Shown piece by piece: positions 46,180-53,765 of a stretch of DNA of 64,000 nucleotides. This DNA comes from Spirochaetia bacterium. Lineage in GTDB: Bacteria > Spirochaetota > Spirochaetia > SP-2023. The position numbers and the translations under genes were made by a program. The notes beneath the pieces are model-generated. The model worked only from the letters and a program-made list of their open reading frames with translations. It did not search any database and was not told the origin of the DNA. The stretch lies in assembly GCA_965263295.1 (NCBI GenBank), contig OZ253665.1, positions 352,001 to 416,000 of the forward strand. Reading direction: 5' to 3'. How positions within the stretch are numbered: position 1 is the stretch's first letter; each line of letters opens with the position of its first letter.

Positions 46180-47751
46180 ATGAATCGAGTTCTGCTGATG
46201 GTGTTTGCCCTATGTTCATTCTTAGGGCTGTTCGGCATTCTGCAGCTAAACTGGCTGGGGCCGCGTTTGCATGCCCAAGAAGAAATTGAAGAAGAAGCCC
46301 AAGCAGAAGTCGCCAAAGAATTCGCAGAATTAGAAACTTTTAACGAAGATTTTGACCGTATACAAAGCGTATTGCGCTCTATCCCTAAGCGTATTTTGCC
46401 ATCTGTAGTACAGCTTAATATTTTTGCACTCAAAGATGACCCTGTCAGCCCGAATTTCTTATTTGATTTTTTTGATGATAAAGACAAACAAAAGGCACCG
46501 GAGAAAATTAATCCACATAAATACCGCTCCTCTGTAATGGGATCGGGTGTGATTTTTCGTCAGGAGGGGCAAACATTTTTTCTGGTGACCAACAACCATG
46601 TGATTCAAGATGCACGTGATATTGAGATAATCAGTTACCGCAAACACAAGTTTGCAGGAAAAGTTGTCGGCCACGATGATCGCGTCGATTTGGCGGTACT
46701 TAGTTTTGAAGCCGATAAAACACAGGCTGAGGATCTGAAAGTTGCCCGTCTTGGCGACTCCCAGAACCTGGAGATTGGCGATTGGGTTATGGCTGTCGGT
46801 AGTCCGAATGGCTTTCAGTCCTCAGTCACTATGGGTATTGTCAGTTACATCGGGCGTCACGGTGGACCGGTAGAAAATATTAACGACTTTATTCAGACCG
46901 ATGCGGCGATCAACCACGGTAATTCTGGCGGTCCTCTGGTCAACATGTATGGAGAAGTGATCGGTATCAATACTTGGCTCGCTTCTGAGAGTGGTTCAAG
47001 TGCCGGTCTGGGCTTTGCCATTCCGATTAACAATACCAAATATATTATTGAATCCTTTCTTAAGGAAGGTAAGGTTAGGTATGGCTGGCTGGGTATCGTG
47101 ATGCAGGAATATGGCCGTATCCTGAATCGCATTGGGCCTCATATTGAGCGTTTCGTCTTGGGAGATTACGGGGTTTATGATAAGAAGGGCGCATTTATAA
47201 CGAGTGTTTTTGAGGGATCTCCCGCAGATAAAGCCGGAATAAAGCCCGGTGACTTTGTCACGGCTGTAAACGGCAAGAATATCGAAAATACCGAGGAGCT
47301 GACCTTTGCCATAGGTCTGATTTTGCCCGGACAGCAGGCTCAATTGCGCATCTTTCGCGATGGTGAGAGTTCTGAGTATCTGGTTACACTGGGTGAGCGT
47401 AAAGATGGAGAATTGCTGGATTCTGAGTCTCATCGTACTTGGCCCGGCATTGATGTTATACCATTGGATGATAGGGTGGTTAAGGCCCTGAAAGAGTTGA
47501 GTCCTGGCTTAAAGGTCGGCGATGCCGATGATGAGATTGCCGGACTGTGGGTATTTCGTATTATTCCGCAGTCCACCAGTGATATCATGGGTTTGCAGCA
47601 AAACGATATTATTACAGCAATAAATGGTGAGGAAGTTTTCAATTTAAGGGATTTTTATCGTATTCTAAATGAGATTGGGCGGGATGGTGAGATTGTCTAC
47701 AGTTACGAGCGTCAGGGTGAAAAAGGCCAGACAGCGAAGATTGAAAGTTAG
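46180..47751 (+). CDS. htrA: HtrA/DegP (Do) serine endoprotease, copy 1
   Basis: GSGVI, TNNHVI, DLAVL, IQTDAAINHGNSGGPL, two PDZ domains. ATG 46180 follows AAGGAG. Confidence 0.93.
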   Translation: MNRVLLMVFALCSFLGLFGILQLNWLGPRLHAQEEIEEEAQAEVAKEFAELETFNEDFDRIQSVLRSIPKRILPSVVQLNIFALKDDPVSPNFLFDFFDDKDKQKAPEKINPHKYRSSVMGSGVIFRQEGQTFFLVTNNHVIQDARDIEIISYRKHKFAGKVVGHDDRVDLAVLSFEADKTQAEDLKVARLGDSQNLEIGDWVMAVGSPNGFQSSVTMGIVSYIGRHGGPVENINDFIQTDAAINHGNSGGPLVNMYGEVIGINTWLASESGSSAGLGFAIPINNTKYIIESFLKEGKVRYGWLGIVMQEYGRILNRIGPHIERFVLGDYGVYDKKGAFITSVFEGSPADKAGIKPGDFVTAVNGKNIENTEELTFAIGLILPGQQAQLRIFRDGESSEYLVTLGERKDGELLDSESHRTWPGIDVIPLDDRVVKALKELSPGLKVGDADDEIAGLWVFRIIPQSTSDIMGLQQNDIITAINGEEVFNLRDFYRILNEIGRDGEIVYSYERQGEKGQTAKIES

Positions 47752-48213
47752 TTTGGCTGAGTATCCGCAGTTAAATCTGAGCTAGAGTATTTTAGGGGGA
47801 CGAAATGTATATCCTAGTCGCGGCCCACAGTCTACTGTTGTCGAAACCAAGGCGACGAAGGCTGGCGCACTTACGGCCCGCGACACGGGCCAGGCCTGTA
47901 AAATAAGTTGAAATGAGGGCGGCCGGCACAATATCGCTCCCAGTTTAATCTGGATCGCTCGTCTCGGTAGAATTGGCTGAGATTTTACAAAGAGCTAAGC
48001 AGGCAGGTGATAAAATGGATACCCGATACGGAGTGCGAGAAGTCCACAGAAGAATCGAAATTTTTCAGGTGAAGTCCGCTGAACAGCTGCTTTCGTTGTC
48101 TGGGCAAATGGCCTGCAGCAGGCACACCTTCCTCGCTTTGTCGTTTTCCCCTGATATCCCATTCCCCCAGATTGGGAGACGACATGAATATTGTCAGTAG
48201 AATGTCAACGCTA

Positions 48214-48242
48214 TTGCAAATGAAAATAGTTATGATTATAAT
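48214..48242 (+). promoter_or_regulatory. fes promoter with overlapping Fur boxes
   Basis: TTGCAA (48214), 17-nt spacer, TATAAT (48237). The 19-mers at 48216 and 48222 each match 13/19 of GATAATGATAATCATTATC. cgctattgcaaatg.aaatagttat closely resembles the enteric fepA-fes control region as I recall it. Confidence 0.8.
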
Positions 48243-48298
48243 ATCAACAAAATTATTTTTCCCGATGGCAATCATAGTAATATAGGGTCAATGGCGGA

Positions 48299-49489
48299 AT
48301 GCGCATAACCGGAAGTGAAGAGTGGTGGCAGGGCATCACCGGACCGCAATCCGAGGCCGTTGATGGCCGATGCCGGATCACTTTCCGGTGGCGAGATCCG
48401 GCAGGCGGCGAAACCTCATCAATGACTCAGCGAGTGTGGATTTACATCACCGGCGTTACCGACCACCATCAAAATGCCGTGCCTCAAACCATGCAGCGCG
48501 TAACGGGTACCGATGCCTGGTACTGGCAAACCACGTTATCCTCCAACTGGCGCGGTAGTTACTGCTTTATTCCCTCCGAACGCGATGACGATTTTTCTCC
48601 CGATCTATTTGCAGGCGATGTCCCGGATCGTACGTTGCTCCGTGAAGGCTGGCGCAAGTTGCTGCCGCGGGCGATTGCCGATCCACTGAATCCGCAAAGC
48701 TGGCAAGGGGCGCGCGGCCATGCGGTCTCTGCGCTGGAGTTGCCGCATGCACCGGAGCAACCCGGTTGGCAGTTTAACGACGAGCCCCGGCCGGCGCCAA
48801 TCTGCCTTGAGTGGCAGAGCCAACGTCTTGGCAATATACGCAGGATCTGGATTTATGTGACCGGCGAAACCGCACCCGCCGCCCGCCGGTTGGCGGCGCT
48901 GCTCGACGGCCAGTTCTGGGTCGAAATTATGCCGGTCTGGCCGGCGCTGGCCGGGCTAACCCGCGAAGAAAAACTTCCTCCGGCGGTTTACCTGCTGATC
49001 GATGTCATCAATAAGCAACACCGTAGCGTTGAGTTGCCCTGCAATCGCGACTTCTGGCTGGCATTACAAGAGGAGTTGCTGCCGCAGGTCTACCGCATAG
49101 CGCCTTTCAGCGACCGTGCCGATCGTACCGTGGTAGCTGGACAGAGCTTTGGCGGCCTGGCAGCGATGTTTGCTGCACTTTACTGGCCGGAGCGCTTTGG
49201 TTGCGTGCTGAGCCAATCCGGTTCCTATTGGTGGCCCCATCGCGGCGGCGCGCAAGATGGAATGTTGATTGAGCGACTCAACAGCGGCGAACTGCATTCC
49301 CGTGGCTTGCGAATCTGGCTGGAAGCCGGTGAGCGTGAACCGATTATTTTTCGCGCCAATCAGGTGCTTTTAGTCCAGCTACAGCAAATGCAGCATACGG
49401 TCTTCTGGCATCCGGTTGACGGCGGTCATGATGCGCTTTGCTGGCGCGGTGGACTGACGGCCGGACTTATTCAGCTATGGCAGTCTTAA
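48299..49489 (+). CDS. fes: Enterochelin (ferric enterobactin) esterase
   Basis: GSEEWW, TFRWRDP, VWIYITGVTDHH, WRGSYCFIP, IADPLNP, LLDGQFW, RSVELPCN, nucleophile elbow GQSFGG, SQSGSYWWP, DGGHDALCWRGGL. Confidence 0.95.
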   Translation: MRITGSEEWWQGITGPQSEAVDGRCRITFRWRDPAGGETSSMTQRVWIYITGVTDHHQNAVPQTMQRVTGTDAWYWQTTLSSNWRGSYCFIPSERDDDFSPDLFAGDVPDRTLLREGWRKLLPRAIADPLNPQSWQGARGHAVSALELPHAPEQPGWQFNDEPRPAPICLEWQSQRLGNIRRIWIYVTGETAPAARRLAALLDGQFWVEIMPVWPALAGLTREEKLPPAVYLLIDVINKQHRSVELPCNRDFWLALQEELLPQVYRIAPFSDRADRTVVAGQSFGGLAAMFAALYWPERFGCVLSQSGSYWWPHRGGAQDGMLIERLNSGELHSRGLRIWLEAGEREPIIFRANQVLLVQLQQMQHTVFWHPVDGGHDALCWRGGLTAGLIQLWQS

Positions 49490-49644
49490 TTACTTATTCA
49501 GGCAATACGCCCTTTAGGTTCACAAACCATTCTGGAAGCATCAGGCAGCGGGGCACGAATTCCGTCAACTTGCTGAGCGGAAGAATGCACACCGCCACGA
49601 TACAGCCAACCTGAAGAATGACAAGTATTATACAGGAATTTACA

Positions 49645-49704
49645 ATGCAATTCAGTAACCCCTTTGACAATCCGCAAGGGGTGGGGGATGCCTGCTTTTA
49701 CTAA
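49645..49704 (+). pseudogene. ybdZ: 5' fragment of MbtH-like protein YbdZ, truncated at the block junction
   Basis: RBS ACAGGA, then MQFSNPFDNPQG (the YbdZ N-terminal SNPFD motif). It runs into unrelated VGDACFY-stop, and the conserved MbtH tryptophans are missing. Confidence 0.85.
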
Positions 49705-49891
49705 ATTGAGGCGTGGGCATTTGTGTAATTAATTCGCTTGTATAACTGATTATAATTTTGATTATAATGTTTTGTAATCTGGTATGGATTGTATGGTATT
49801 AATTCCGATAAAGATGTTGTAAAACGAATATAAACAAACGAACAAAATTGGGATATGGGCGTTGGTTCAGGTTGAAGGAGAATGAAAGATA

Positions 49892-50533
49892 ATGGAGGCA
49901 ACTCGCAAGATTTTTGTGGATCCCATCACTGTACGCAATAATGGGATCCGCATGGCTTATCAAATGTGGCAAGACGGGTTTATTCCCAGCATGATCTACG
50001 TGCCGCTGCGTGGCGGTGCGGGATTGGGTAATATTATCAGTGAGGTATTTAAGTTACTGCTGCCAGAGACTCCAGCTTTGTATTGCGCGGTGATTGCGCA
50101 CAGCTATCAGGGATATAATCTGGAGGCAGCGGTCAACGTTGACGGCTGGACTACGGAAGCCCAGAACATTCGGCCGGTAGATCGTGTCCTGTTGGTAGAT
50201 GACATTTACGACAGCGGTAAGAGTGCCAATTATTTGTGGCAACAAATCCTGAGTTTTAGCAAGCATCCGGAAAACTGCCGTTTGGCTGTACATGACTATA
50301 AAGAATTTGCTTACCGCGAAGCTTTACCTAAGGTTCCCGACTATTATGCGGTGCATCATAAAATTGCAAGTGAAGCCGATGATTTTTGGATACACTACAG
50401 CTCGCACGAGCTTTATGGCCTGACGTTTGCTGAACGAGAAAAGTACTACTATCAGCAGTATCCACAGTTGCGTGATTCACTGGAAGAAATTTTTAGTTAT
50501 GGCGAGAGGCATAGCAAGAATTTGACAAATTGA
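49892..50533 (+). CDS. Type I phosphoribosyltransferase family protein
   Basis: PLRGG and the PRPP-binding loop VLLVDDIYDSGKS. Confidence 0.85.
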   Translation: MEATRKIFVDPITVRNNGIRMAYQMWQDGFIPSMIYVPLRGGAGLGNIISEVFKLLLPETPALYCAVIAHSYQGYNLEAAVNVDGWTTEAQNIRPVDRVLLVDDIYDSGKSANYLWQQILSFSKHPENCRLAVHDYKEFAYREALPKVPDYYAVHHKIASEADDFWIHYSSHELYGLTFAEREKYYYQQYPQLRDSLEEIFSYGERHSKNLTN

Positions 50534-53451: not shown

Positions 53452-53765
53452 AGGTATTCCTCCTATAAATGAATGTAGAATGATAATAGCGATATTGTGG
53501 CGAAAGTCCAGCATCGCCCAGGCTCATTCTACTTTCTGTGAGCTTGTAGATTTTTTTCTTGGAACTGTATATTTGAGAGCCGGGCTCCGAGTCAATGCCG
53601 GCCGCGCAGTAGTGTCACTTCAGGCATATTTCCTAATATCGCATCGTTTACAGAAATTTGTCATCAATATTTCATTGATTATCGCAAGATTGATAAATTG
53701 TCAGGGAAAATTGTCCTCTTATTGATCGGGTAGTGCACGGTGGGGCCGGAAGAGAGGGTGAGCGA

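Follow-up and report, generated by a model that had tools for sequence, protein, structure and literature searches.

A fes-bearing fragment of an enteric enterobactin locus in a spirochaete chromosome, broken in one strain

Between two host genes of a spirochaete chromosome lies a block of about 1,554 bp (48127-49680) that matches the enterobactin locus of enteric bacteria: the leader of fepA, the control region and complete coding sequence of fes, the gene for an enterochelin (ferric enterobactin) esterase, and the first codons of ybdZ. The chromosome is that of Spirochaetia bacterium (GenBank assembly GCA_965263295.1, here G000), a single contig (OZ253665.1) of 2.41 Mb and 49.4% GC with a completeness of 92.6% and a contamination of 0.08%. 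The 64,000 nucleotides analysed, called the window, are G000:352001-416000, and positions without the prefix G000 are window positions. The host is a spirochaete, with three matches to FlaA (PF04620), a family that gave matches in 0 of 14 control genomes. The evidence shows a chromosomal block that several strains share and three congeners lack, that falls among the enterics in a tree and has a promoter of its own, and that one strain carries in a broken form. We think it probable that a 1.55-kb piece of an enterobactin locus from the Klebsiella/Raoultella clade entered by non-homologous capture, that the promoter and fes it brought were of some benefit, and that selection on them is now relaxed.

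All three congeners keep the gene order speD-speE-htrA1-PRT-htrA2, in which htrA1 (here 46180-47751, +) encodes a DegP/HtrA protease and PRT (here 49892-50533, +; 73-76% amino acid identity to the congeners) a phosphoribosyltransferase. These two genes flank the block; they lie 102, 68 and 27 bp apart in the congeners and 2,140 bp apart here, so that the block is missing between them in 3/3 of the relatives, where the initial annotation proposed to look for an empty site. The same annotation held that fes at this locus in related spirochaetes would speak against a recent foreign origin, and no such copy was found in the three congeners. Neither was Fes found in 400 other genomes of the phylum. 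Among 401 genomes of the class, only this one passes the cut-off of the Fes family model NF007758, 100 others giving weaker esterase-domain matches (best 154 bits). Among the matches listed, the closest Fes proteins are those of Raoultella (78-80% amino acid identity); E. coli, with 67% only, was rejected as a closer donor. A tree of 29 proteins places the two spirochaete alleles inside the Klebsiella plus Raoultella clade (support 99/98) and, within it, groups them with Raoultella and the K. oxytoca group at lower support (94/91). Composition, suggested earlier as a further check against the flanks, also sets the gene apart: the GC content at third codon positions (GC3) of fes is 0.63 (0.635), compared with 0.45-0.58 in six neighbouring genes and 0.65-0.76 in 11 enterics, and the fes region ranks second in an enteric-versus-host 5-mer scan of the genome.

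The block is not confined to one assembly. Four sequencing runs (X1-X4; at most three samples from two studies) contain the stretch, and we compared their contigs, depth being flat within each. In 4/4 runs a single contig crosses both junctions, with the same ends in all, which refutes the chimeric or spliced sequence that the initial annotation had kept as an alternative. X1 (25.8 kb, depth 68.5) and X2 (29.5 kb, depth 55.3) come from one sample, possibly the source of the assembly; X3 (22.2 kb, depth 4.2) comes from the other study, and X1, X2 and X3 show no differences at the junctions. X4 (11.5 kb, depth 99.2) represents a distinct haplotype: over 4.5 kb it differs by 18 substitutions and 2 indels. 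Since independent haplotypes carry their own fes mutations, a one-off chimera is excluded. In two more assemblies, members of the Fes, htrA1, PRT and htrA2 clusters lie on contigs of equal size (258,607 and 87,925), which we take from the size to be the same contig in each case. In X4, fes is interrupted by a nonsense mutation (codon 76) and a frameshift (codon 112) and has 3 missense and 4 synonymous changes besides, while the flanking genes have 6 missense and 13 synonymous changes and no indels (34 of the 36 X4 substitutions were listed). Both X4 indels within 8.7 kb fall inside the block; one is the fes frameshift, and the other restores the enteric spacer length.

The fes gene (48299-49489, +; 396 amino acids) is intact in the window and is the sole open reading frame (ORF) of more than 100 amino acids between htrA1 and PRT; the intact Fes frame reported there is borne out by a score of 607 bits against the curated NF007758 cut-off of 222. 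The protein has the domains PF11806 (Enterochelin_N) and PF00756 (Esterase) and aligns over its full length with solved enterobacterial enterochelin esterases (PDB 3mga and 2b20). Ser283 (in GQSFGG) and His377 (in GGHD) are retained, and the motifs GQSFGG, EAGERE and GGHD align to 3mga. The product is a Fes family member, with hydrolysis of ferric enterobactin as its predicted activity. Of the 396 residues, 8 are different in P0001, an intact allele. At 124 columns that are invariant in 119 enteric Fes proteins, each intact copy shows 4 changes, 3 of them common to both, compared with a leave-one-out mean of 0.26 changes for enteric Fes at such columns.

Upstream of fes, the DNA itself shares homology with the fepA-fes control region of enterics, and the earlier remark that the likeness goes beyond the protein is therefore correct, as judged from non-coding homology. 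The control region (48208-48298, +) carries a sigma70-type promoter (48214-48242; -35 TTGCAA, 17 nt, -10 TATAAT; 10/12 to consensus) that overlaps sequence homologous to the Fur operator. The score of the Fur boxes claimed for this promoter (13-14/19 to a Fur consensus) is uninformative, as 522 and 86 positions of the genome score as well. The boxes are putative, and support for them comes from homology to the enteric operator, which is partly altered here. PMC2189734 lists a Fur footprint at E. coli fepA-fes in its Table 3. The -10 element is TAATAT in all 27 enteric loci that carry the anchor and a perfect consensus TATAAT here, a hint of selection at some stage, although it could be a trait of the donor. 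The 10-mer TGATTATAAT has nine copies in the genome, three of them at the locus: one at 48233, which forms the altered -10, and two at 49747 and 49759.

The ends of the block were located by homology. When 47752-48207 is aligned locally to 11 enteric loci, the match begins at 48127-48130 in 10 of them, and in 8 it scores higher than any of 100 shuffles. The left end (48127-48207) is fepA leader, cut just 5' of the fepA start codon, with a leader some 80 bp shorter than that of Raoultella at 48207; six-frame translation revealed no fepA remnant to the left of 48127. The left edge had first been drawn at 47800, about 330 bp too far to the left. The right edge drawn at 49680 holds, as enteric homology stops abruptly there. 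Downstream of fes, a 155-bp spacer (49490-49644, +), the 3' end of which is the ribosome-binding site of ybdZ, aligns partly to the 98-bp spacer of Raoultella; the K. oxytoca group has 27 bp. There follow, as described earlier, the first 12 codons of the MbtH-like gene ybdZ (49645-49680, +), identical to one enteric locus (L018) at 36/36 nucleotides and to Raoultella at 33/36, with all differences synonymous.

Outside these ends the sequence is of mixed descent. On the right, an AT-rich spacer (49681-49891), presumably host DNA, holds the tandem TGATTATAAT words and leads to PRT. On the left, 47752-48126 has no match in 5 enteric genomes, in phages or, above the gathering score, in Rfam, and its larger part, a spacer of untraced origin (47752-48014), is unmatched in the 5 enteric genomes (best E 0.027), phages and congeners. 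To the right of this spacer, 48015-48089 (+) is a decayed 5' remnant of 25 codons from a multi-copy gene of the host, not of enterics: it matches the host family without gaps at 56/75 nucleotides from the exact ATG (blastn E 4.5e-6, nhmmer E 1.3e-9), with differences spread over all codon positions, as in a decayed pseudogene. The family has five long copies and one short copy, with 198-240 amino acids and no Pfam match over the cut-off. The copies lie at G000:133,147-133,740(-), 683,005-683,631(-), 898,428-899,054, 732,125-732,847, 1,453,634-1,454,200 and 422,291-422,494(-); they contain a variable coiled-coil-like repeat and what we take to be a nuclease-like motif.

The junctions carry no signature of a mechanism. 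The longest word shared across them is 6 nt at the edges first proposed, about what we estimate by chance for windows of 50 x 60 nt, and 7 nt at the revised edges, where it is not flush with the junctions; GGGG starts 3 times per kb. Microhomology in G-runs, as first proposed, is therefore at chance level. The host empty site that had been reconstructed from these edges is not supported, given the wrong left edge and congener spacers too diverged for a junction test at base level. The motif offered for comparison was set aside as uninformative: the genome has 3 copies of GATGCCTGCTT and 52 of TTTAGGGG. The insert showed neither a target duplication nor a terminal repeat, and there was no element remnant, integrase, transposase or tRNA target at the site, in agreement with the initial annotation; the three tRNAs of the window all lie at 2.6-4.6 kb, more than 40 kb away.

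It is possible, although we regard it as unlikely, that a larger insertion (a prophage, a plasmid, an integrative conjugative element, or DNA borne by an insertion sequence) later lost its mobility genes and ends by deletion, and that the block is what trimming has left of it. This would be a route of entry and could be combined with either view of the function. Trimming would fit the lack of a target duplication or above-chance microhomology, the host-gene remnant cut off beside the left end, the shortened leader, the mostly untraced flanking stretches (left 375 bp, right 211 bp), and the occurrence of fes regions on records filed as plasmids. However, the site has no element remnant, terminal repeat or tRNA, and the ends are alike in X1-X4.

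What fes could do in this host depends on the rest of its iron metabolism. In enterics, according to PMC3832793, ferric enterobactin is imported by FepA/TonB and an ATP-binding cassette (ABC) system with a periplasmic protein, and cytoplasmic Fes cleaves it and frees the iron. Of this uptake pathway, judging from sequence, only the Fes cleavage step is present here as an orthologue. A tblastn search of G000 with 14 E. coli ent/fep proteins (threshold 1e-3; entA not queried) gave no match for fepA, entF, entB, entD, entS, fepB or fepE and none of ybdZ length, and weak partial matches only for entC and entE, which extends to the whole genome the earlier statement that neither fepA nor entF is present. 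No condensation domain of nonribosomal peptide synthetases (NRPS; PF00668) and no IucA/IucC were found in G000. TonB, plug and receptor barrel (PF03544, PF07715, PF00593) were likewise not found in this 92.6% complete genome; they are present in 2 of the 3 congeners. G000 does have one Fur-family gene (PF01475) and two PF01497 binding-protein ABC systems of the iron-chelate type, 26-37% identical to FepC/D/G and with no FepB match. A FepBDGC-type ABC operon lies at G000:1,500,800-1,504,850 (L047:3806-7849), with an alpha/beta hydrolase gene about 1 kb upstream; its binding protein has 61-67% identity to proteins of Alphaproteobacteria and no more than 34% to those of congeners.

A second enteric-type iron-uptake island lies at G000:1,970,480-1,976,730 (L055:4483-10731) and encodes two ABC proteins, MptD and the T and ATPase components of an energy-coupling factor (ECF) system. 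It is the top window of the 5-mer scan and is 73% identical at the nucleotide level, over 6.2 kb, to Salmonella plasmid CP053317, on which the island genes directly follow genes for an NRPS, an Irp3-like protein and a thioesterase; the spirochaete is without these. Its MptD is 73% identical to that of Buttiauxella. The three congeners show no DNA match to the island, only paralogues at 32-39%; it is not bridged in other assemblies, and dispersed host repeats flank it on both sides. With the same consensus as above, Fur-like boxes scoring 16/19 occur at 1,500,738 and 1,970,408, beside the alphaproteobacteria-like importer and this island, and are two of the four such sites in the genome. About 10 regions among the top 30 windows of the scan were examined, and only the first-ranked was traced to enterics. 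Further Klebsiella inserts were sought with 120 pieces from a single Klebsiella-clade genome, which together cover 44% of it (2.4 of 5.5 Mb). Among the 39 matches listed (at least 200 bp, 63-76%), the 18 that were translated proved to be common conserved genes of metabolism, housekeeping or ABC transport, and another four are rRNA-sized or lie at rRNA loci.

In the model that we favour, an unsampled donor would have supplied the block in a single entry, before the sampled strains diverged from their ancestor, probably as taken-up DNA and leaving no footprint of an element; ComEC, DprA and a gene that we take to be ComM-like from its sequence type (ORF at 53733) are present. Transcription would start at the captured sigma70 promoter, possibly repressed by the host's single Fur-family protein, and cytoplasmic Fes would hydrolyze the ferric enterobactin of enteric neighbours after import through a FepBDGC-type ABC transporter of the host. 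An early benefit is probable because the block holds almost exactly the promoter and fes. This benefit was probably real when the block became fixed and would be small or intermittent now. Selection on fes looks relaxed, given the nonsense and frameshift mutations of X4 and the changes of the intact copies at invariant residues, and the gene is likely being lost.

Several observations weigh against parts of this model. In the absence of a junction signature, entry as naked DNA is a guess, since ComEC and DprA are near-universal (found in 10 and 11 of the 14 control genomes). As TonB, plug and receptor were not found, the import step lacks a route across the outer membrane, and the best PDB matches of the candidate importer have E ~1e-17. 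The evidence for decay is also open to other readings. The excess of changes at invariant columns is partly expected of a long branch, and the perfect -10 and the two intact haplotypes fit continued use of fes. Fisher tests gave no significant difference between fes and the flanks, either in amino acid differences (p=0.10 and 0.08) or in the ratio of nonsynonymous to synonymous changes (4:4 vs 6:13, p=0.41), and are suggestive at most. None of the RNA runs contained the stretch. Finally, a truncated Fes of 216 amino acids (P0122) lies on a contig on which htrA1 is truncated as well, a possible assembly error; it was set aside and not counted as a second broken allele.

Active siderophore piracy, with fes under selection as part of a utilisation-only toolkit drawn from Proteobacteria and the broken allele as a local loss, seems to us unlikely, but several observations fit it. 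The block comprises almost exactly a promoter and fes, and both neighbouring genes are trimmed off; the -10 is a perfect consensus where 27/27 enterics have TAATAT; and the catalytic motifs of Fes are retained. To this can be added the second enteric importer island without adjacent synthesis genes, the third ABC importer with its alphaproteobacteria-like binding protein (61-67%), and the location of two of the genome's four 16/19 Fur-like boxes at just these importers. TonB-independent use of enterobactin via an ABC transporter has been reported in Neisseria (PMC3832793). On the other hand, the nonsense and frameshift mutations of X4 are found at depth 99, both intact alleles have private changes at invariant residues, and neither TonB nor a receptor was found. 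Carried to its end, and with no greater confidence, the idea would make this lineage a thief of siderophores without TonB, which on several occasions took from proteobacterial siderophore loci only the half that serves utilisation and placed it under its own Fur. The captured modules would be the enteric fes, its promoter now strengthened, a twin-ABC/MptD importer of enteric type separated from an NRPS cluster, and an alphaproteobacteria-like FepBDGC-type ABC system, with one module still sorting in the population.

Synonymous divergence (dS) of fes from 11 enterics is 0.89-1.25, with a dS of 0.62 on the spirochaete branch. The ratio of nonsynonymous to synonymous divergence (dN/dS) on that branch is 0.13 (bootstrap 0.09-0.18) and 0.14 elsewhere in the tree; an elevated ratio was looked for and not found, and the similarity argues that the divergence arose under purifying selection. 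The ybdZ stub, by contrast, would be functionless and yet is undecayed: it has no amino acid change, and 0 changes at about 27 nonsynonymous sites limit drift since its truncation to about 10% at most. From this we infer an unsampled donor in which the divergence had already built up, and a young transfer that nevertheless predates the split of strains 0.4% apart. The initial annotation's cross-phylum transfer without mobility genes is thus upheld, whereas its "very recent" holds only loosely, the block being common to four haplotypes that differ by about 0.4% at the nucleotide or 2% at the amino acid level and no sampled enteric exceeding 80% amino acid identity. As a rough estimate, the 3-4 changes seen at the 124 invariant columns would amount to a nucleotide drift of about 1-1.5% if fes had evolved neutrally from the time of entry. 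We consider it very unlikely that the transfer is old and that most of the 20% divergence from Raoultella was gained inside the spirochaete under purifying selection. No donor above 80% amino acid identity was found in 5.8 billion proteins (120 listed), 11 genome loci, 16 metagenome loci and plasmids, the GC3 of fes (0.635) lies just below the enteric range, and the adjoining host remnant is 25% diverged; these observations speak for an old transfer. However, the stub matches one enteric at 36/36, its drift of at most about 10% contrasts with a branch dS of 0.62, and the block is absent in 3/3 congeners.

An assembly chimera or enteric contamination of the sample is extremely improbable: this assembly may have been built from X1 and X2 and the evidence consists of contigs with depth flat by construction, but the junctions are bridged in 4/4 runs, including another study and a diverged haplotype with its own fes mutations, no long donor-like contig was among the pieces listed at 80% likeness, and G000 has a contamination of 0.08%.

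Some further observations concern the surroundings. At 46876-47093, the protease-core segment of htrA2 differs from htrA1 at 43-49 positions in the X3 and X4 alignments and is listed with 0 differences in X1 and X2; either the way in which the alignments are displayed or gene conversion between these tandem paralogues could account for it. An identical inverted 2.8-kb duplication (G000:1,897,510-1,900,305 and 1,976,778-1,979,570) adjoins the second island and carries a 608-amino-acid ORF without a family match. Dispersed or clustered intergenic repeats of 50-200 bp, unmatched in congeners, gave more than 200 blastn matches (E<0.01) from one 400-bp query, for example at G000:1,900,000-1,920,000, 810,400-811,400 and 1,705,700-1,706,900. 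A phosphoenolpyruvate mutase gene at L055:2232-3530 (G000 about 1,968.2-1,969.5 kb), common to two congeners at the DNA level, suggests phosphonate synthesis. The congener G003, in which no TonB was found, has 15 PF01497 matches, many of them in tandem (for example at C5:1,771,700-1,779,600).

The locus offers a nucleotide-resolved, strain-replicated snapshot of a gene that crossed phyla with its promoter and without an element and is then lost in part of the population, and it points to an unsampled relative of Klebsiella and Raoultella in the same niche. If functional, it would represent Fes-based xenosiderophore use in a spirochaete, which strips iron from the siderophore of other bacteria, and one would have to ask by what route, in the absence of TonB, ferric siderophores get through the outer membrane of a spirochaete. 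A literature search by title and abstract, with most subscription journals and supplements outside its scope, found no report of a spirochaete Fes.

By sequence, the gene belongs to the Fes family and the locus is neither an enterobactin system nor a mobile element. It shares with enterobacterial Fes (NF007758/PRK10439) the full-length two-domain protein and the catalytic motifs, and with the enteric fepA<->fes-ybdZ-entF locus the promoter/Fur region, the ybdZ start and the gene order. Here, however, fes stands alone in a spirochaete: fepA, entF, the exporter gene entS, a fepB orthologue and TonB were not found, the -10 is altered and one haplotype has a broken fes. From mobile elements and integrative islands it differs in having no integrase or transposase, repeats, duplication or tRNA at the site. 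SPDIR (short-patch double illegitimate recombination) likewise integrates fully foreign DNA without mobility genes, but its patches are about 3-100 bp long and use microhomology (bioRxiv 2023.11.22.568220), whereas the block here is 1.55 kb with microhomology no better than chance. The xenosiderophore use of Neisseria, where PMC3832793 describes TonB-independent uptake of enterobactin through FbpABC, resembles the present case in having utilisation genes without biosynthesis, and no TonB was found in our host; here both the importer and the use are putative, and the esterase is a captured enteric gene. Acquisition of genes across phyla has been described for the spirochaetes Brachyspira hyodysenteriae (PMC2650404, the main text of which does not contain the word "siderophore") and Sphaerochaeta (PMC3372971), which limits the surprise. 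The present case is a further example of such transfer, with enterobactin piracy as a plausible use. In those spirochaetes, too, genes for transport and metabolism came from co-resident enterics or clostridia; what sets this locus apart from them is an event so young that nucleotide alignment still extends to non-coding DNA and to the end of a truncated gene, and that decay is visible at the level of strains.

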